A DNA stretch of 6,632 nucleotides from a virus (Duplodnaviria; Heunggongvirae; Uroviricota; Caudoviricetes), in IMG/VR virus record IMGVR_UViG_2693429508_000005. One strand, written 5' to 3'. The position numbers were made by a program, and so were the translations under genes. Shown here in pieces: positions 1 to 6,632 of this stretch (positions within the stretch are counted from its first letter, which is position 1; every line of letters begins with the position of its first letter). The notes under the pieces are model-generated. The model was given only the letters and a program-made list of their open reading frames with translations. It was not told the DNA's origin and did no database searches.

Positions 1-606
1 GAAGGAGTGTCCGTTAAACTCAGGCTACCTCAGGATGCGGATAATGCGGCGGGAACGGCAGAACAGATGTTTACAGTGGCATTCAGCAGTGCCGGTAATG
101 CACTGGCGACATTCTGTACCACCGGTAAGCTGAATTTTAAATCCTTCACCTCTTCCCTGTTGTCAGATATGGCCAGAATTATGGCACAGATGGCCATGAT
201 GCAGGCGGTAAAGGGCGTCGGTTCTTTATTCGGCTTCACGACTAATGCTGATGGCGGTGTTTACCAGTCTGCTGATTTGAGTCGCTACAGTGGCACGGTG
301 GTTAACCGTCCGACGTTTTTTGCTTTTGCAAAAGGCGCGGGTGTGATGGGGGAAGCGGGACCTGAAGCCATTCTGCCACTGCGTCGCGGTGCTGATGGTA
401 AGCTGGGGGGTGTGGCGGATACTGGTGGTTCAGGCATGGTGATGTTTGCCCCGCAGTACAACATTGAGATCAATAACGATGGCACGAACGGGCAGATAGG
501 TCCGGCTGCCCTGAAGGTGGTTTATGACCTCGGGAAAAAAGCGGCCGCGGACTTTATGCAACAGCAGGCCCGTGATGGTGGCCGGTTAAGTGGAGCATAC
601 CGGTAA
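1..606 (+). CDS. H: Tail length tape-measure protein, C-terminal part (5'-partial; divergent allele H')
   Basis: Reading frame is open from the window start (the track's GTG at 7 is not the real start) and stops at TAA 604-606. The C-terminus (...NNDGTNGQIGPAALKVVYDLGKKAAADFMQQQARDGGRLSGAYR) is homologous but only about half identical to the lambda-type H C-terminus at 1455-1889 (...QNDGTNGLPGPQMMKAVYDMARKGARDEIQTQMRDGGLFSGGGR). The stop overlaps the start of an M homologue (TAATG), the synteny seen in lambda H-M. Confidence 0.7.
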   Translation, partial: EGVSVKLRLPQDADNAAGTAEQMFTVAFSSAGNALATFCTTGKLNFKSFTSSLLSDMARIMAQMAMMQAVKGVGSLFGFTTNADGGVYQSADLSRYSGTVVNRPTFFAFAKGAGVMGEAGPEAILPLRRGADGKLGGVADTGGSGMVMFAPQYNIEINNDGTNGQIGPAALKVVYDLGKKAAADFMQQQARDGGRLSGAYR

Positions 607-935
607 TGGAGACGTTTCACTGGAAAGTGCGCCCGGATATGAATGTGGTATCAGAGCCGAAAGTGGTGACAGTGAAGCTGGGCGATGGTTATGAACAGCG
701 TCGTGCGGCGGGACTGAATAACCAGTTGTCGACTTACAGCGTGACGATACGTGTTCGTAAAGGTGAACACCCATTTTTAAAAGCCTTTCTGGAACGGCAC
801 GGTGGCGTCCGCGCATTTCAGTGGACGCCACCTTATGACTGGAAGCCGATCAGGGTGGTTTGTCGTAAATGGTCGGCAAGCGTGGGGGCGTTGTGGGTAA
901 CCATAACGGCAGATTTTGAACAGGTCGTGGCATAG
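606..935 (+). CDS. M: Tail tip assembly protein M (divergent allele M')
   Basis: 109 aa, the same length as the lambda-like M at 1886-2215 and alignable end to end (shared WKV.P.M.V, GDGY.QR, AGLN..L.TYSVT, FLE.HGG, W.TPPY.W, ADFEQVV motifs), at roughly 60% identity by eye. Start overlaps the H' stop (TAATG). Confidence 0.85.
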   Translation: METFHWKVRPDMNVVSEPKVVTVKLGDGYEQRRAAGLNNQLSTYSVTIRVRKGEHPFLKAFLERHGGVRAFQWTPPYDWKPIRVVCRKWSASVGALWVTITADFEQVVA

Positions 936-944
936 GAGGCTCTG

Positions 945-1453
945 ATGCAGGATATTCCACAGGAAACACATCATGAGACGACACGCCTCACTCAGTCAGC
1001 CCAGGTGGTGCTCTGGGAAATCGATCTGACAGAGGTCGGTGGTGAACGTTATTTTTTCTGTAATGAGCAGAACGAAAAAGGTGAGCCGGTTACCTGGCAG
1101 GGGCGGCAGTATCAGGCATACCCCATTCAGGGGACGGGATTTGAACTGAACGGCAAGGGCAGTGCTGCCCGTCCGACACTGACGGTTTCTAACCTGCACG
1201 GAATGGTCACCGGGATGGCGGAAGACCTGCAGAGTCTGGTCGGCGGAACGGTGGTCAGGCGTAAGGTTTACGCCCGTTTTCTGGATGCGGTGAACTTCGT
1301 CAACGGAAACAGCGACGCCGATCCGGAACAGGAGGTGATCAGCCGCTGGCGCATCGAGCAGTGCAGCGAACTGAGCGCGGTCAGTGCCTCTTTTGTGCTG
1401 GCCACACCAACGGAGACGGATGGCGCGGTTTTCCCGGGGCGTATCATGCTGGC
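945..1453 (+). CDS. L: Tail tip protein L, N-terminal fragment (L', about 169 codons), fused in frame to an H C-terminal fragment
   Basis: AGGAGG-like RBS at about 935-940 precedes ATG 945. From about nt 1005 it is roughly 90% identical in nucleotides to the L gene at 2215-3070; the first ~20 codons diverge. Homology to L stops after ...GRIML at 1453, with an ambiguous base n at 1454. Confidence 0.7.
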
Positions 1454-1454
1454 N

Positions 1455-1889
1455 GGGGCTGTTGGTGGCGGCGCATCCGCGTCAGGTGGTACAGCCATTC
1501 AGGCCGCTGCGGCGAAATTCCATTTTGCAACTGGGGGATTTACGGGAACCGGCGGCAAATATGAGCCAGCGGGGATTGTTCACCGTGGTGAATTTGTCTT
1601 CACGAAGGAGGCAACCAGCCGGATTGGCGTGGGGAATCTCTACCGGCTGATGCGCGGCTATGCGGAAGGTGGTTATGTGGGCGGTGCCGGAAGTCCGGCG
1701 CAGATGCGGCGGGCTGAAGGCATTAATTTTAATCAGAACAATCACGTGGTGATTCAGAACGACGGTACGAATGGTCTGCCAGGTCCACAGATGATGAAGG
1801 CCGTGTATGACATGGCCCGCAAGGGTGCCCGTGATGAAATTCAGACACAGATGCGTGATGGTGGCCTGTTCTCCGGAGGTGGACGATGA
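1455..1889 (+). CDS. H: Tail tape-measure protein H, C-terminal fragment (lambda-type, about 144 codons), 3' part of the chimeric ORF 945-1889
   Basis: Ends ...QMRDGGLFSGGGR, matching the lambda gpH C-terminus as I recall it. Stop TGA 1887-1889 overlaps the M start ATG 1886 (ATGA), as in lambda H/M. Gly/Ala-rich segment typical of tape-measure C-termini. Confidence 0.7.
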   Translation, partial: GAVGGGASASGGTAIQAAAAKFHFATGGFTGTGGKYEPAGIVHRGEFVFTKEATSRIGVGNLYRLMRGYAEGGYVGGAGSPAQMRRAEGINFNQNNHVVIQNDGTNGLPGPQMMKAVYDMARKGARDEIQTQMRDGGLFSGGGR

Positions 1890-2215
1890 AAACCTTCCGC
1901 TGGAAAGTGAAACCCGGTATGGATGTGGCTTCGGCCCCTTCTGTAAGAAAGGTGCGCTTTGGTGATGGCTATTCCCAGCGAGCGCCTGCCGGGCTGAATG
2001 CCAACCTGAAAACGTACAGCGTGACGCTTTCTGTCCCCCGTGAGGAGGCCATGGTACTGGAGTCGTTTCTGGAAGAGCACGGGGGCTGGAAAGCCTTTCT
2101 GTGGACGCCGCCTTATGAGTGGCGGCAGATAAAGGTGACCTGCGCAAAATGGTCGTCGCGGGTCAGTATGCTGCGTGTTGAGTTCAGCGCAGAGTTTGAA
2201 CAGGTGGTGAACTGA
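1886..2215 (+). CDS. M: Tail tip assembly protein M (lambda-like)
   Basis: 109-aa ORF MKTFRWKVKPGMDVAS...SAEFEQVVN, essentially identical to lambda gpM as recalled. ATGA overlap with the upstream H stop, and its stop overlaps the L start at 2215. Confidence 0.92.
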   Translation: MKTFRWKVKPGMDVASAPSVRKVRFGDGYSQRAPAGLNANLKTYSVTLSVPREEAMVLESFLEEHGGWKAFLWTPPYEWRQIKVTCAKWSSRVSMLRVEFSAEFEQVVN

Positions 2216-3070
2216 TGCAGGATATCCGGCAGGAAACACTGAATGAATGCACCCGTGCGGAGCAGTCGGCCAGCGTGGTGCTCTGGGAAATCGATCTGAC
2301 AGAGGTCGGTGGAGAACGTTATTTTTTCTGTAATGAGCAGAACGAAAAAGGTGAGCCGGTTACCTGGCAGGGGCGGCAGTATCAGGCNNNNNNNNNNNNN
2401 NNNNNNNNNNNNNNNNNNNNNNNNNNNNNNNNNNNNNNNNNNNNNNNNNNNTCTGACAGAGGTCGGTGGAGAACGTTATTTTTTCTGTAATGAGCAGAAC
2501 GAAAAAGGTGAGCCGGTCACCTGGCAGGGGCGACAGTATCAGCCGTATCCCATTCAGGGGAGTGGTTTTGAACTGAATGGCAAAGGCACCAGTACGCGCC
2601 CCACGCTGATGGTTTCTAACCTGTACGGTATGGTCACCGGGATGGCGGAAGATCTACAGAGTCTGGTCGGCGGAACGGTGGTCCGGCGTAAGGTTTACGC
2701 CCGTTTTCTGGATGCGGTGAACTTCGTCAACGGAAACAGTGACGCCGATCCGGAGCAGGAGGTGATCAGCCGCTGGCGCATTGAGCAGTGCAGCGAACTG
2801 AGCGCGGTGAGTGCCTCTTTTGTACTGTCCACGCCGACGGAAACAGATGGCGCTGTTTTTCCGGGACGTATCATGCTGGCCAACACCTGCACCTGGACCT
2901 ATCGCGGCGATGAGTGCGGTTATCACGGTCCGGCGGTCGCGGATGAATATGACCAGCCAACGTCCGACATCACGAAGGATAAATGCAGCAAATGCCTGAG
3001 TGGCTGTAAGTTTCGCAATAACGTCGGCAACTTTGGCGGCTTCCTTTCCATTAACAAACTTTCGCAGTAA
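2215..3070 (+). CDS. L: Tail tip protein L (lambda-like), interrupted by an N-gap and a redundant 93-bp overlap; intact 232-codon gene if 2215-2385 is joined to 2543-3070
   Basis: N-terminal ORF 2215-2387 (MQDIRQETLNECTRAEQSASVVLWEIDLTEVGGERYFFCNEQNEKGEPVTWQGRQYQ) runs into the N-run. Sequence after the gap repeats the last 93 nt and continues in L frame to TAA 3068-3070. Joining 171 + 528 nt gives 699 nt, which is 232 aa plus stop. C-terminus carries a Cys cluster (CTWTYRGDECGYHG...KDKCSKCLSGC). Confidence 0.85.
2388..2451. other. Assembly gap (64 N)
   Basis: Continuous run of n from 2388 to 2451. Confidence 0.97.
2452..2544. repeat. 93-bp direct duplicate of 2295-2387 flanking the gap (unmerged contig overlap)
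   Basis: 2452-2544 (tctgacagaggtcggtggagaacg...cagtatcagcc) repeats 2295-2387 with 3 mismatches (T/C, G/A and a final G/C). Confidence 0.9.
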
Positions 3071-3075
3071 ATCCC

Positions 3076-3819
3076 ATGACAGAGACAGAATCAGCGATTC
3101 TGGCGCACGCCCGGCGATGTGCTCCAGCGGAGTCGTGCGGCTTCGTGGTAAGAACGCCGGAGGGGGAAAGATATTTCCCCTGCGTGAATATCTCCGGTGA
3201 GCCGGAGGCGTATTTCCGTATGTCGCCGGAAGACTGGCTGCAGGCAGAGATGCAGGGTGAGATTGTGGCACTGGTCCACAGCCACCCCGGTGGTCTGCCC
3301 TGGCTGAGTGAGGCCGACCGGCGGCTGCAGGTGCAGAGTGATTTGCCGTGGTGGCTGGTCTGCCGGGGGGCGATTCACAAGTTCCGCTGTGTGCCACATC
3401 TTACCGGGCGGCGCTTTGAGCACGGGGTGACGGACTGTTACACGCTGTTCCGGGATGCTTACCATCTGGCGGGGATTGAGATGCCGGATTTTCATCGTGA
3501 GGATGACTGGTGGCGTCACGGTCAGAATCTCTATCTGGATAATCTGGAGGCCACAGGGCTGTATCAGGTGCCGTTGTCAGCGGCGCAGCCGGGCGATGTG
3601 CTGCTGTGCTGTTTTGGTTCATCGGTGCCGAATCATGCCGCCATTTACTGTGGTGACGGCGAGCTGCTGCACCATATTCCTGAACAACTGAGCAAACGAG
3701 AGAGGTATACCGACAAATGGCAGCGACGCACACACTCCCTCTGGCGTCACCGGGCATGGCACGCATCTGCCTTTACGGGGATTTGCAACGATTTGGCCGC
3801 CGCATCGACCTTCGTGTGA
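3076..3819 (+). CDS. K: Tail tip assembly protein K (MPN/JAMM plus NlpC/P60-like), long form of 247 aa; the classical lambda-type start would be the in-frame ATG at 3220
   Basis: ORF MTETESAILAHARRCAPAESCGFVV... is open from the ATG 6 nt after the L stop. It contains the JAMM signature H-x-H-x7-S-x2-D (HSHPGGLPWLSEAD) and a Cys...His pair (GVTDCYTLF ... NHAAIY) compatible with an NlpC/P60 fold. The last 103 nt overlap I, as in lambda K/I. Confidence 0.85.
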   Translation: MTETESAILAHARRCAPAESCGFVVRTPEGERYFPCVNISGEPEAYFRMSPEDWLQAEMQGEIVALVHSHPGGLPWLSEADRRLQVQSDLPWWLVCRGAIHKFRCVPHLTGRRFEHGVTDCYTLFRDAYHLAGIEMPDFHREDDWWRHGQNLYLDNLEATGLYQVPLSAAQPGDVLLCCFGSSVPNHAAIYCGDGELLHHIPEQLSKRERYTDKWQRRTHSLWRHRAWHASAFTGICNDLAAASTFV

Positions 3820-4388
3820 AAACGGGTGCCGAAGCCATCCGGGCGATGGCCACACAGCTCCCTGCGTTTCGTCAGAAGCTGAGCGACGGCTGGTATCAGG
3901 TGCGTATTGCCGGGCAGGATGTTAGCACGTCCGGATTAACGGCGCAGTTACATGAGGCTCTGCCTGACGGCGCTGTGATTCATATTGTTCCCAGAGTCGC
4001 CGGGGCCAAGTCAGGTGGTGTATTCCAGATTGTCCTGGGAGCAGCCGCCATTGCCGGATCATTCTTTACCGCCGGAGCCACCCTTGCAGCATGGGGGGCT
4101 GCCATTGGTGCCGGTGGTATGACCGGCATTCTGTTTTCTCTCGGTGCCAGTATGGTGCTCGGCGGTGTGGCTCAGATGCTGGCACCGAAAGCCAGAACTC
4201 CCCGCACACAGACAACGGATAACGGTAAGCAGAACACCTATTTCTCCTCACTGGATAACATGGTTGCCCAGGGCAATGTTATGCCTGTTCTGTATGGTGA
4301 AATGCGCGTGGGGTCACGTGTGGTATCTCAGGAGATCAGCACGGCAGACGAAGGGGACGGTGGTCAGGTTGTGGTGATTGGTCGCTGA
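3717..4388 (+). CDS. I: Tail tip assembly protein I
   Basis: 223-aa ORF MAATHTLPLASPGMARICLYGDLQRFGRRIDLRVKTG...VVVIGR, essentially identical to lambda gpI as recalled. Overlaps the 3' end of K in a different frame. Contains a long Gly/Ala-rich hydrophobic segment. Confidence 0.92.
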   Translation: MAATHTLPLASPGMARICLYGDLQRFGRRIDLRVKTGAEAIRAMATQLPAFRQKLSDGWYQVRIAGQDVSTSGLTAQLHEALPDGAVIHIVPRVAGAKSGGVFQIVLGAAAIAGSFFTAGATLAAWGAAIGAGGMTGILFSLGASMVLGGVAQMLAPKARTPRTQTTDNGKQNTYFSSLDNMVAQGNVMPVLYGEMRVGSRVVSQEISTADEGDGGQVVVIGR

Positions 4389-4410
4389 TGCAAAATGTTT
4401 TATGTGAAAT

Positions 4411-4427
4411 CGCCTCCGGGCGGTTTT
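4411..4427 (+). terminator. Small GC hairpin followed by TTTT in the I-J intergenic spacer (possible weak terminator or attenuator)
   Basis: CGCC-TCCG-GGCG (4-bp stem, 4-nt loop) at 4411-4422, followed by GTTTT. Lies between the I stop (4386-4388) and the J RBS (GGAG at 4437-4440). Confidence 0.2.
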
Positions 4428-4448
4428 ATCGTTTATGGAGCATGACGA

Positions 4449-6632
4449 ATGGGTAAAGGCAGCAGTAAGGGGCATACCCCGCGCGAAGCGAAGGACAACC
4501 TGAAATCCACGCAGTTGCTGAGTGTGATTGATGCCATCAGCGAAGGGCCGGTTGAAGGTCCGGTGGATGGATTAAAAAGCGTGCTGCTGAACAGTACGCC
4601 GGTGCTGGACAGTGAGGGGAATACCAACATCTCCGGCGTCACGGTGGTGTTCCGGGCAGGTGAGCAGGAGCAGTCACCGCCGGAGGGATTTGAATCCTCC
4701 GGCTCCGAGACGGTGCTGGGTACGGAAGTGAAATATGACACGCCGATCACCCGGACCATCACGTCGGCAAACATTGACCGACTGCGTTTTACCTTCGGTG
4801 TACAGGCACTGGTGGAAACCACCTCAAAGGGAGACAGGAATCCGTCTGAAGTTCGCCTGCTGGTTCAGATACAGCGTAACGGTGGCTGGGTGACGGAAAA
4901 AGACATCACCATTAAGGGCAAAACCACCTCGCAGTATCTGGCCTCGGTGGTGGTGGATAACCTGCCGCCGCGCCCGTTTAATATCCGGATGCGCAGAATG
5001 ACGCCGGACAGCACCACAGACCAGCTGCAGAACAAAACGCTCTGGTCGTCATACACCGAAATCATCGATGTGAAACAGTGCTACCCGAACACGGCACTGG
5101 TCGGCGTACAGGTGGATTCGGAGCAGTTCGGCAGCCAGCAGGTGAGCCGTAATTATCATCTTCGCGGGCGCATTCTGCAGGTGCCGTCGAACTATAATCC
5201 GCAGACGCGGCAATACAGCGGTATCTGGGACGGAACGTTAAAACCGGCATACAGCAACAACATGGCCTGGTGTCTGTGGGATATGCTGACCCATCCGCGC
5301 TATGGCATGGGGAAACGTCTTGGTGCGGCAGATGTGGATAAATGGGCGCTGTATGTCATCGGCCAGTACTGTGACCAGTCGGTGCCGGACGGCTTTGGCA
5401 GCACGGAGCCGCGCATCACCTGTAATGCCTGGCTGACCACACAGCGCAAGGCGTGGGATGTGCTCAGTGATTTCTGCTCGGCGATGCGCTGTATGCCGGT
5501 ATGGAACGGGCAGACGCTGACGTTCGTGCAGGACCGACAGTCGGATAAGGTGTGGGCCTATAACCGCAGTAATGTGGTGATGCCGGATGATGGCGCGCCG
5601 TTCCGCTACAGTTTCAGCGCCCTGAAAGACCGCCATAATGCCGTTGAGGTGAACTGGATTGACCCGGATAACGGCTGGGAGACGGCGACAGAGCTTGTGG
5701 AGGATACGCAGGCCATTGTCCGTTACGGTCGTAACGTCACGAAGATGGATGCCTTTGGCTGTACCAGCCGGGGGCAGGCACACCGAGCCGGGCTGTGGCT
5801 GATTAAAACGGAACTGCTGGAGACGCAGACCGTGGATTTCAGCGTGGGTGCTGAAGGGCTTCGTCATGTACCGGGCGATGTCATTGAAATCTGCGATGAT
5901 GACTATGCCGGTATCCGCACCGGCGGGCGCGTGCTGGCGGTGAACAGCCAGACCCGGACGCTGACGCTCGACCGTGAAATCACGCTGCCATCCTCCGGCA
6001 CCACGCTGATAAGCCTGGTTGACGGGCAGGGGAATCCGGTCAGCGTGGAGGTCCAGTCCGTCACCGACGGCGTGAAGGTAAAAGTGAGCCGTGTTCCTGA
6101 CGGTGTTGCTGAATACAGCGTGTGGGGGCTGAAGCTGCCGACGCTGCACCAGCGATTGTTCCGCTGCGTGAGTATCCGTGAGAACGACGACGGCACGTAT
6201 GCCATCACCGCCGTGCAGCATGTGCCGGAAAAAGAAGCCATCGTGGATAACGGGGCGCACTTTGACGGCGACCAGAGCGGCACGGTGAATGGTGTCACGC
6301 CGCCAGCGGTGCAGCACCTGACTGCCGAAGTCACCGCAGACAGCGGGGAATATCAGGTGCTGGCGCGCTGGGACACGCCGAAGGTGGTGAAGGGCGTGAG
6401 CTTCCTGCTCCGTCTGACCGTAACAGCGGATGACGGCAGTGAGCGGCTGGTCAGCACGGCCCGGACGACGGAAACCACTTACCGCTTCACACAACTGGCG
6501 CTGGGGAACTACAGGCTGACAGTCCGGGCAGTAAATGCGTGGGGGCAGCAGGGCGATCCGGCGTCGGTATCGTTCCGGATTGCCGCACCGGCAGCGCTGT
6601 CGCGGATTGAGCTGACGCCGGGCTATTTTCAG
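4449..6632 (+). CDS. J: Tail tip attachment / host specificity protein J, N-terminal 728 codons (3'-partial, runs off the window)
   Basis: ATG 4449 preceded by GGAG 9-12 nt upstream. Open frame to the window end, MGKGSSKGHTPREAKDNLKSTQLLSVIDAISEGPVEGPVDGLKSVLLNSTPVLD..., highly similar to lambda gpJ as recalled. Not in the ORF track because it has no stop within the window. Confidence 0.93.
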   Translation, partial: MGKGSSKGHTPREAKDNLKSTQLLSVIDAISEGPVEGPVDGLKSVLLNSTPVLDSEGNTNISGVTVVFRAGEQEQSPPEGFESSGSETVLGTEVKYDTPITRTITSANIDRLRFTFGVQALVETTSKGDRNPSEVRLLVQIQRNGGWVTEKDITIKGKTTSQYLASVVVDNLPPRPFNIRMRRMTPDSTTDQLQNKTLWSSYTEIIDVKQCYPNTALVGVQVDSEQFGSQQVSRNYHLRGRILQVPSNYNPQTRQYSGIWDGTLKPAYSNNMAWCLWDMLTHPRYGMGKRLGAADVDKWALYVIGQYCDQSVPDGFGSTEPRITCNAWLTTQRKAWDVLSDFCSAMRCMPVWNGQTLTFVQDRQSDKVWAYNRSNVVMPDDGAPFRYSFSALKDRHNAVEVNWIDPDNGWETATELVEDTQAIVRYGRNVTKMDAFGCTSRGQAHRAGLWLIKTELLETQTVDFSVGAEGLRHVPGDVIEICDDDYAGIRTGGRVLAVNSQTRTLTLDREITLPSSGTTLISLVDGQGNPVSVEVQSVTDGVKVKVSRVPDGVAEYSVWGLKLPTLHQRLFRCVSIRENDDGTYAITAVQHVPEKEAIVDNGAHFDGDQSGTVNGVTPPAVQHLTAEVTADSGEYQVLARWDTPKVVKGVSFLLRLTVTADDGSERLVSTARTTETTYRFTQLALGNYRLTVRAVNAWGQQGDPASVSFRIAAPAALSRIELTPGYFQ

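Follow-up and report, generated by a model that had tools for sequence, protein, structure and literature searches.

Mosaic segments of lambdoid phages have been defined as stretches of at least 100 bp in which two phage genomes, temperate or defective and diverged elsewhere, exceed 90% identity (PMC3945230). Homologous recombination (HR) traces were found for only about one third of such mosaics, the median mosaic is about 400–500 bp long, and sequences with as much as ∼12% divergence are recombined by Red-beta (PMC3945230). The genes that are compared here encode the tail tip region, in which lambda gpL comprises an HDI (residues 1–166) and an Fe-S domain (residues 154–232), with the cluster coordinated by C173, C182, C205 and C212 (PMC10721106). 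The DNA stretch that was analyzed, 6632 nt long and hereafter called the window, contains an abrupt change of sequence identity within gene L, between what the first-pass annotation described as two module copies lying side by side. This junction is ordinary, already-known lambdoid mosaicism to which a scaffolding error was added. The complete explanation, in which the tandem is a scaffolding artefact caused by the shared sequence, is very probably correct.

Contigs and prophage loci in the window

The window consists of three contigs chained by Ns. Positions 1–1453 belong to one tail-gene locus (locus A), positions 1455–2387 contain the end of H, all of M and the beginning of L from a second one (locus B), and positions 2452–6632 contain L-K-I-J of locus B. 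The supposed adjacent module copies thus come from different prophage loci, whose contigs were joined at the following features:

1454, no strand: single N, scaffold join between the locus-A and locus-B contigs; contexts differ on each side
2388–2451, no strand: false 64-N gap; flanks 2295–2387 and 2452–2544 are the same 93 nt
945–1889, + strand: artificial L′::H fusion ORF of 314 codons, with X at the N; natural contexts differ on both sides

Window 1–1453 is 100% identical to contigs and genomes that carry a complete L′ gene of 232 aa with K′-I′-J′-lom behind it, and the natural L′ continuation beyond 1453 would be GAATACCTGTATG. The sequence from 1455 onward is, in gap-free genomes, part of an intact H of 853 aa, and the sequence expected just ahead of 1455 is ...GCCATTGGC. 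The frame at 945–1889 is artificial, because the tandem is a scaffold of two prophage loci joined at Ns. The flanks of the 64-N gap are identical to each other at 90 of 93 nt, and on gap-free locus B the coordinates of their contigs overlap (5566–6500 and 6410–10590); since the flanks duplicate 93 nt, this gap is false. The mismatches of the contig-2 tail to locus B of L099, at 2361, 2376 and 2386, all correspond to the contig-1 (locus A) base, and with three locus-A variants in its last 27 nt this tail is chimeric.

These features are those of a repeat-induced short-read scaffold misjoin, in which contigs end in a near-repeat, both unique entrances are placed in series, Ns serve as placeholders at the joins, a false gap is flanked by duplicated sequence and one contig has a chimeric tail. 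The Ns stand at the junctions, the gap-free continuations differ, and the join point varies from one assembly to another: in the sister draft L089, the A–B join lies inside K′ and leads to H 15 nt further in, at a single N, and in the sister draft L088 the J 5′ end of locus B is joined, in the opposite order and again at a single N, to a point within the IS600 copy upstream of A. Artefacts of this kind also affect at least two further public drafts, as well as the IMG/VR ‘viral genome’ L004. Pipelines of the SSPACE/GapFiller type typically join contigs by a single N; no usable statement of a single-N scaffolder convention was found in a literature search. An assembly-graph overlap at the 1454 join was also considered and rejected, as a search for k-mer overlap found only TGGC common to both sides.

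The H′-M′-L′(1–170)::H-M-L tandem could alternatively be real, formed by an illegitimate or microhomology-mediated join of the prophages, with the N as an ambiguous base call. Reading passes from L′ into H without a change of frame at the N, which has a 1-in-3 chance, both sides have TGGC directly ahead of the join, which could count as a microhomology of 4–5 nt (TGGC[G]), and the order of A then B in L089 is comparable. However, the join points of L089 and L088 differ from that of the window and all of these joins are at single Ns, both loci are intact in gap-free assemblies, the second gap of the window is demonstrably false, and the end of contig 2 is a chimera. Moreover, none of 5426 complete E. 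coli genomes contained at least 80% of window 1–3200 in one place. A real tandem is therefore extremely unlikely.

Locus A is a degraded prophage with a tail of the mEp460/cdtI type, in which H′ is cut by IS600:

1–32, − strand: terminal 32 nt of IS600 (IS3 family), cutting H′ at 32/33; 100% identity to L087 999–1030, reversed
33–606, + strand: H′ 3′ end (tape-measure gene, mEp460/cdtI type); PF09718 Tape_meas_lam_C, E = 1e-19
606–935, + strand: M′ (distal tail protein), locus A allele; PF05939, E = 1.8e-39
945–1453, + strand: L′ codons 1–170, locus A allele, ended by the contig end; PF05100

Positions 1–32 are also 100% identical to the contig starts of L091 and L092, which lead into an IS transposase gene; in E. 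coli genomes the element is annotated as ‘IS3-like element IS600 family transposase’. All phage and E. coli matches to H′ begin at 33/34, the H′ 3′ end is 100% identical to L087 and L090, and the GTG start of ORF 7–606 is supplied by the IS end. The exact M′ protein occurs in assemblies with full L′-K′-I′-J′-lom downstream, and the identical L′ sequence runs into a complete 232-aa L′ in L087, L090–L094 and S. flexneri SFBU1023, so the truncation of L′ is a contig end and not a real one. The Fe-S domain is missing from the window L′ because the contig ends. S. flexneri SFBU1023 contains the exact contig-1 end with 131 nt of upstream sequence, and the context further upstream was taken from other loci. 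The corresponding tail module of mEp460, cdtI and PhiR47_1 matches the H′ 3′ end, M′ and the L′ 5′ part at 91–94%, over window 33–1453 or 103–1453 in one piece, and its L N-terminus (MQDIPQETHHETTRLTQSAQ) is identical to the A copy; it differs in that the window copy has the IS600-cut H′ and that L′ in its natural context has a diverged Fe-S domain.

The remainder of the window belongs to locus B:

1455–1889, + strand: H 3′ end, lambda-type, 144 codons plus stop; colinear within the 853-aa H of L095/L099
1886–2215, + strand: M, lambda-type allele; PF05939, E = 7e-40
2215–2387, + strand: L codons 1–58, end of contig 2; the three locus-A variants lie in 2361–2387
2452–3070, + strand: L from nt 81 to stop; PF05100; 99.88% identical to L099
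3076–3819, + strand: K (JAB/MPN plus NlpC/P60 tail assembly protein); PF14464, PF00877
3717–4388, + strand: I (tail tip insertion protein); PF06805
4449–6632, + strand: J (central tail fibre), 5′ 728 codons, running past the window end; PF24801, PF13550, PF24421

Both M′ and M match PF05939 (Phage_min_tail) over its full length with 135–136 bits (cut-off 39), and many assemblies encode the exact M protein as part of V-G-T-H-M-L-K-I-J. The H 3′ end at 1455–1889 alone gave no Pfam match. When 2215–2294 and 2452–3070 are combined, an intact 232-aa gpL is obtained (PF05100, E = 1e-100, profile positions 1–206), which contains Cys173/182/205/212. The window J is colinear with that of L099, and at each of the five positions where contig 3 departs from natural locus B (4237, 4505, 4515, 4529 and 5786) the base is that of locus A. 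Locus B shares the H-M-L-K-I-J order, the Pfam families and the 232-aa gpL with four Fe-S cysteines with the lambda-type module (lambda, HK630, phage 21 and mEp332), which it matches at 93–96% from the 3′ end of H through M into the 5′ end of L. It shows no notable difference from this module and is an ordinary allele, 99.5–99.9% identical to the loci of many public assemblies. The comparison with lambdoid genomes that had been proposed thus assigns the A segments to the mEp460/cdtI/PhiR47_1 type and the B segments to the lambda/HK630/phage 21/mEp332 type.

Identity step inside L

The two loci were compared as an ungapped pair of M′+L′ (606–935 and 945–1453) and M+L (1886–2215, and 2215–2294 plus 2452 onward). 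The maximum-likelihood change point is at window 1004/1005, corresponding to L nt 60/61 and codon 20/21, with a 2-lnL support interval of 1004–1009. To its left, 237/390 nt are identical (60.8%), and to its right 410/449 (91.3%; Fisher p = 1.8e-26). The log-likelihood ratio of the change point is 57.5, and the maximum in 2000 column permutations is 9.4. The junction is located as follows:

1004–1005, + strand: mosaic junction, A copy; identity 61% left and 91% right, dS 1.99 to 0.35
2274–2275, + strand: mosaic junction, B copy; L codon 20/21, from the sliding-window profile and change-point fit

These results bear out the first-pass annotation, which had placed an abrupt step just inside the 5′ end of L, followed by ∼90% nucleotide identity past codon ∼20: the sliding-window profile changes in a step at this position and is not uniformly divergent across M and L. 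The reading of M′/M and of the H′/H C-termini as different alleles also holds, as the M proteins are 56% identical and the H C-termini can be aligned only over the final 55 residues, with 47% identity. The identity of gpL is 65% for residues 1–20 and 94.6% for residues 21–169. The high-identity L tract is patchy, with dips to 72–82% at 1142–1201 and 1382–1453 in the sliding window, and its left edge coincides with the first long identity run, 38 nt at L nt 61–98.

A step of this kind could also arise without any recombination, if purifying selection acted more strongly on the gpL core than on the gpL N-terminus and gpM. The Pfam Phage_tail_L core begins at residue 29, so the first 20–28 residues are outside the conserved family core, and in all lineage pairs examined conservation is higher in L than in M. 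Purifying selection alone, however, does not account for the collapse of synonymous divergence: dS between A and B is 1.69 in M, 1.99 in L codons 1–20, 0.35 in codons 21–169 and 0.19 in codons 86–145, and is thus ∼five-fold lower right of the codon 20/21 boundary. Nor does it account for the reassortment of internal L patches, as in L084, which combines lambda-type M and L N-terminus with an A-type patch at codons 57–85, or for the L-core identity between lineages, which is bimodal (74–77% or 90–94%) and does not track M identity. Selection as the sole cause is therefore highly improbable. Because dS falls from ∼1.7–2.0 to 0.35 at the step, the sequences point to a recombination (mosaic) junction, beyond what protein constraint would produce.

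The junction in other phages and genomes

The step is not specific to this assembly. The isolated phages mEp460 (Mexico) and HK630 (Hong Kong) have it at the same nucleotide, with identities of 60% in M, 63% in L nt 1–60, 91% in L nt 61–510 and 96% in K, and it is also present between two complete E. coli genomes (L001 and L002) and between gap-free locus A (L087) and gap-free locus B (L099). Together with the ∼five-fold drop in dS, this recurrence in independent phages and genomes upholds the earlier attribution to lambdoid modular mosaicism by recombination. The shared segment had been given as ∼450 bp, a length that was set by the contig end. Between L087 and L099, the similar block extends through L, K, part of I and ∼3 kb of J, so the codon-20 edge is the left end of a patchy L-K-I-J block of ∼5 kb with 75–100% identity.

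The high-identity block might instead result from gene conversion between the two prophages within the host genome (concerted evolution), and the A-type bases in contig 3 (five) and the contig-2 tail (three) could be short conversion tracts. Against this, the junction is at the same nucleotide between free phages and between loci of different E. coli genomes, and A and B are less alike in L (91%) than are L001 and L002 from different strains (mostly 94–100%, with one patch of 80–90%). The A-type bases are missing from L089 and from seven gap-free B loci, and they fit assembler cross-talk equally well. Gene conversion is very unlikely as the source of the block.

In other lineages the conserved L block begins at the M/L gene junction, so the codon-20 edge is, as far as the compared sequences indicate, lineage-specific and no general hot spot; the sample is small, and suggests that only the A lineage has the nt 60/61 edge. 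The L proteins retrieved from IMG/VR with L as query were all at least 99% identical to it, too uniform for a broad survey of junction positions. Loci L004, L042 and L072 came from this search.

Codon 20/21 could also be the edge of a functional sub-module, in which the 20 N-terminal residues of gpL are co-adapted with gpM and the gpH C-terminus; selection would then preserve H-M-L(1–20) as a unit and allow crossovers at codon 20/21 alone. In all seven A/B-type sequences compared, a given M type goes with the same L(1–20) type while downstream patches reassort, and in the lambda tail tip the gpL HDI/gpJ ring is stacked on the gpM ring (PMC10721106). However, the same structural study gives no specific contact of gpL residues 1–20 with gpM. 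Moreover, the 473R12-type M is only 51% identical to lambda M in nucleotides, yet it adjoins a lambda-like L N-terminus (88%, nt 1–60), a pattern repeated in L042 and L072, and 2851 and JNE110649 are 95% identical over L nt 1–60 with just 62% in M. A strict M–L(1–20) linkage was thus rejected, as it holds in the A/B-type sequences and is broken in the 473R12-type and 2851/JNE110649 lineages. Co-adaptation is an unlikely basis for the edge, and it is decidedly unlikely that the junction is a selected sub-genic boundary of a unit of H C-terminus, M and gpL N-terminal arm; if it were, this unit would be inherited together so that the gpM ring docks on the gpL/gpJ hub.

As a lambdoid mosaic, the junction agrees with those described by De Paepe et al. 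in 2014 (PMC3945230) and with the modular picture of PMC9836094 in its >90% block (449 nt at 91.3%), its abrupt edge and its ∼60% background (61%). The two sides have differing histories, with dS of 1.69–1.99 on the left and 0.35 on the right and patches that reassort between lineages. As in the 2014 mosaics, a functional-type module is paired with a degraded prophage, and the edge lies within a gene and not at a gene boundary. Unlike them, the left flank lacks an HR trace, and the patchy block of ∼5 kb exceeds the median mosaic. No intermediate identity is seen on this flank, as L nt 1–60 are 63% identical compared with 61% in M, below the background + 10% that marks such a trace.

Proposed history and meaning

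The source bacterium is most likely a Shigella or E. coli with two lambdoid tail-gene loci, A and B, which are old homologues through H, M and L codons 1–20, with ∼60% nucleotide identity and saturated synonymous sites. The L-K-I-J block probably spread by homologous recombination among lambdoid phages and prophages, with its left edge at the 38-nt identity run. Because the left flank is without an HR trace, we infer this mechanism rather than demonstrate it, and the same applies to the exact scaffolding logic. Short-read assembly would have broken inside L because the L-K-I-J block is a near-repeat between the two loci, and the scaffolder would then have set both ‘entrances’ of the repeat in series, as contig A, an N, the small B contig with H-M-L, 64 Ns and the B contig with L-K-I-J. 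The earlier suspicion of assembly confusion through the shared segment was justified, as the false tandem arose at this near-repeat.

For the biology of lambdoid phages, the junction is a clean yet routine case of mosaicism. For data quality, the shared L-K-I-J near-repeat leads short-read assemblies to string two prophage loci together as a false tandem, which yields a fictitious 314-codon L′::H ORF, a seemingly truncated L′ and a false gap with duplicated sequence. Such records mislead counts of tail-gene duplications, fusion proteins or prophage numbers.

Gene content of the window

By its ORFs and Pfam matches, the window encodes a lambda-type tail-tip operon, with a first module of the mEp460/cdtI type (locus A; H', M' and L') and a second module of the lambda type (locus B; H, M and L).

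Features of the window
1–32, end of an IS600 copy (see also L087 999–2263 and L091 1–126)
7–606, plus strand, tape-measure gene, 3' end (PF09718)
606–935, plus strand, M' (PF05939)
945, plus strand, start of an L-like gene (PF05100)
1454, single N
1886–2215, plus strand, second M
2215, plus strand, start of second L
2388–2451, run of 64 Ns
3076–3819, plus strand, K (PF14464 and PF00877)
3717–4388, plus strand, I (PF06805)
from 4449, plus strand, J (5' 728 codons)

An IS600 copy interrupts H' of locus A; its end occupies nt 1–32 and supplies the GTG start of the 199-codon ORF at 7–606. H' is uninterrupted at this point in the complete genome L087, so the insertion is lineage-specific. Neither N site is visible from the reading frames alone, and the ORF at 945–1889 (314 codons) runs through L' to codon 170, across the N at 1454 and into the last 144 codons of a tape-measure gene. 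In locus A, 9 nt separate the M' stop from the L' start, with a GGAGG Shine-Dalgarno motif (933–947); in locus B, the stop and start codons overlap as TGATG (2211–2217). A 418-codon antisense ORF (5238–6494, minus strand), located entirely within J and facing the PF13550 and PF24421 domains, is called as a gene in the draft contig L089 and is almost certainly not one.

The identity step within L

The first-pass annotation described an abrupt transition just inside the 5' end of L, and this was borne out by sliding-window alignment of the two modules. Identity in 40-nt windows was 45–75% across H, M and L nt 1–60 and 82–100% beyond, with one dip to 72% at 1142–1201, i.e. a step change near L codon 20 and not uniform divergence across M and L. 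The maximum-likelihood change point in the ungapped M and L columns fell between 1004 and 1005, at L codon 20/21 (support interval 1004–1009), with a log-likelihood ratio of 57.5 (the maximum among 2000 permutations was 9.4). Identity was 60.8% (237/390) to the left and 91.3% (410/449) to the right (Fisher p = 1.8e-26). At the protein level, the modules are 56% identical in M, 65% in L residues 1–20 and 94.6% in residues 21–169, and the H' and H tails are alignable over 55 residues only (47% identity).

Synonymous divergence between loci A and B (Nei-Gojobori dS) was 1.69 in M and 1.99 in L codons 1–20, and dropped to 0.35 in codons 21–169, with values as low as 0.19 in codons 86–145. Since protein-level constraint does not lower dS, the two sides of the junction differ in history. 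The step occurs at the identical nucleotide in three independent comparisons: between two complete Escherichia coli genomes (FDAARGOS_944 and KKo009), between gap-free copies of locus A (L087) and locus B (L099), and between mEp460 and HK630, phages isolated on different continents (M 60% and L nt 1–60 63%, followed by L nt 61–510 91%, L nt 511–699 95% and K 96%). The junction thus belongs to phage lineages, not to the assembly or the host. Together with the dS drop, this supports the proposed recombination breakpoint, and comparison with lambdoid genomes assigned the donor lineages to the mEp460/cdtI/PhiR47_1 type for module 1 (91–94%) and the lambda/HK630/phage 21/mEp332 type for module 2 (93–96%).

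Red-beta/RecA can generate lambdoid mosaics from short, diverged homology, and traces of flanking homology are present in about one third of mosaics (PMC3945230). Past the diverged M sequence, a long identical run first occurs at L nt 61–98. Its 38 nt would suffice as a substrate, and resolution of a crossover at this site would produce exactly the observed edge. No trace of intermediate identity was found on the left flank (63% versus 61%). All of this fits known lambdoid biology.

Six M-L types were compared (A, B, phage 2851, vB_EcoM-606R7, vB_EcoS-473R12 and Stx2a_JNE110649). M was more diverged than L in every comparison (51–76% nucleotide identity in M), the L core fell into two identity classes (74–77% or 90–94%), and L nt 1–60 varied independently. 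This segment is 88% identical between the lambda and 473R12 types, with M genes at 51%, and 95% identical between 2851 and JNE110649, whose M genes share 62% identity; that of the A type is 55–63% identical to all others. The 473R12 pattern is repeated in IMG/VR loci L042 and L072. In these 473R12-type loci and the 2851/JNE110649 lineages, the conserved block is bounded by the M/L gene junction, and the codon-20/21 edge appears to be confined to the A lineage. The distal-tail hexamer of the lambda tail tip is made of gpM, and stacked on it is a ring of gpJ and the HDI domain of gpL (residues 1–166); no specific role is reported for gpL residues 1–20 (PMC10721106). The Pfam L profile starts at residue 29. 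Among A/B-type sequences, M type is linked to L(1–20) type and deeper L patches reassort (e.g. in L084). The observed patterns weaken the idea of an obligatory co-adapted unit of M and L(1–20), although a weaker effect may exist.

A second mosaic edge lies in L near codon 170, near the border of the HDI and Fe-S cluster domains, exactly where the first contig ends. The Fe-S cluster domain of natural locus A L' (L087 6833–7012) is only 67–75% identical to that of lambda-type L (window 2880–3070); for the A-type L of E. coli FDAARGOS_944 and mEp460 the figure is ∼95%. In phage 2851 (L102 3032–4327), K does not directly follow L: a small hypothetical gene and an antirepressor-like one come first, forming a moron-like insertion within the tail-tip operon.

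Assembly origin of the tandem arrangement

The side-by-side placement of the two copies, taken at face value in the first-pass annotation, is wrong, as indicated by the N joins, the duplicated gap flanks and the normal continuation of both loci elsewhere. The window is composed of a locus A contig (1–1453), an N, a small contig with the H 3' end, M and the L 5' end of locus B (1455–2387), 64 Ns and a locus B L-K-I-J contig (2452–6632). The flanks of the 64-N gap (2295–2387 and 2452–2544) are the same 93-nt stretch of L (90/93 identical), and in seven gap-free B loci window 1450–2385 maps to 5566–6500 and 2452–6632 to 6410–10590, so the contigs overlap and the gap is false. Three of the four differences between the middle contig and natural locus B lie within its last 27 nt (2361, 2376 and 2386); all three are module-1 bases and are preceded by 47 nt identical in both alleles. 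Judged by these bases, the tail of this contig is probably chimeric.

Contigs L091 and L092 match window 1–1453 at 100% identity, as L087 does for 33–1453; in all three, L' runs on to its complete length of 232 aa, and K'-I'-J'-lom come after it. The 185 nt directly before the N at 1454 are 100% identical to S. flexneri SFBU1023, where GAATACCTGTATG... (the rest of L') comes next. Window 1455 corresponds in gap-free genomes to a mid-gene position of an intact H (853 aa), with ...GCCATTGGC just before. Two other public drafts chain these loci in other ways. In L089 (CXDB01000145.1), locus A extends past L' and into K' before a single N at 5497, after which H starts 15 nt further in; in L088 (CXAQ01000042.1), K, I and the 5' end of J from locus B are joined, through a single N at 1124, to the IS600 interior upstream of locus A. 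A biological junction would be reproducible; the join points differ between drafts. A search of 5426 complete E. coli genomes found none with at least 80% of window 1–3200 in one place; the best matches were single H-M-L-K units, onto which both query halves collapsed.

The shared segment was earlier put at ∼450 bp, a figure that arises from truncation of the contig: it is the length from the junction to where the contig stops. Between gap-free loci A and B, similarity extends far beyond it, at 75–100% from L codon 21 through K; identity falls in mid-I, is ∼95% over ∼3 kb of J and is lower again at the receptor-binding end of this gene. The longest stretches shared without mismatch are 292 nt (J) and 55 nt (the L segment present in the window). 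Two unique entrances, H'-M'-L'5' and H-M-L5', lead into one near-repeat, and the scaffolder would have set them in series, which is a classic scaffolding error. All five differences between the third contig and the seven gap-free B loci (4237, 4505, 4515, 4529 and 5786) are the locus A base, reflecting either true gene conversion over short tracts in this strain or assembler cross-talk between loci that are nearly identical.

Many IMG/VR contigs with lambda-type L stop ∼100–900 nt downstream of L (L013, L020, L028, L033, L034, L041 and others), as would be expected if assemblies often break in the L-K-I-J near-repeat shared by co-resident lambdoid prophages. Comparable false joining of A and B is seen at a single N (1755) in L004 (IMGVR_UViG_2698536312_000003), and IMG/VR has accepted such a product as a 10.5-kb 'viral genome' in which M and L are duplicated. 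The useful outcome is the identification of a scaffold misjoin that has also spread into other public records.
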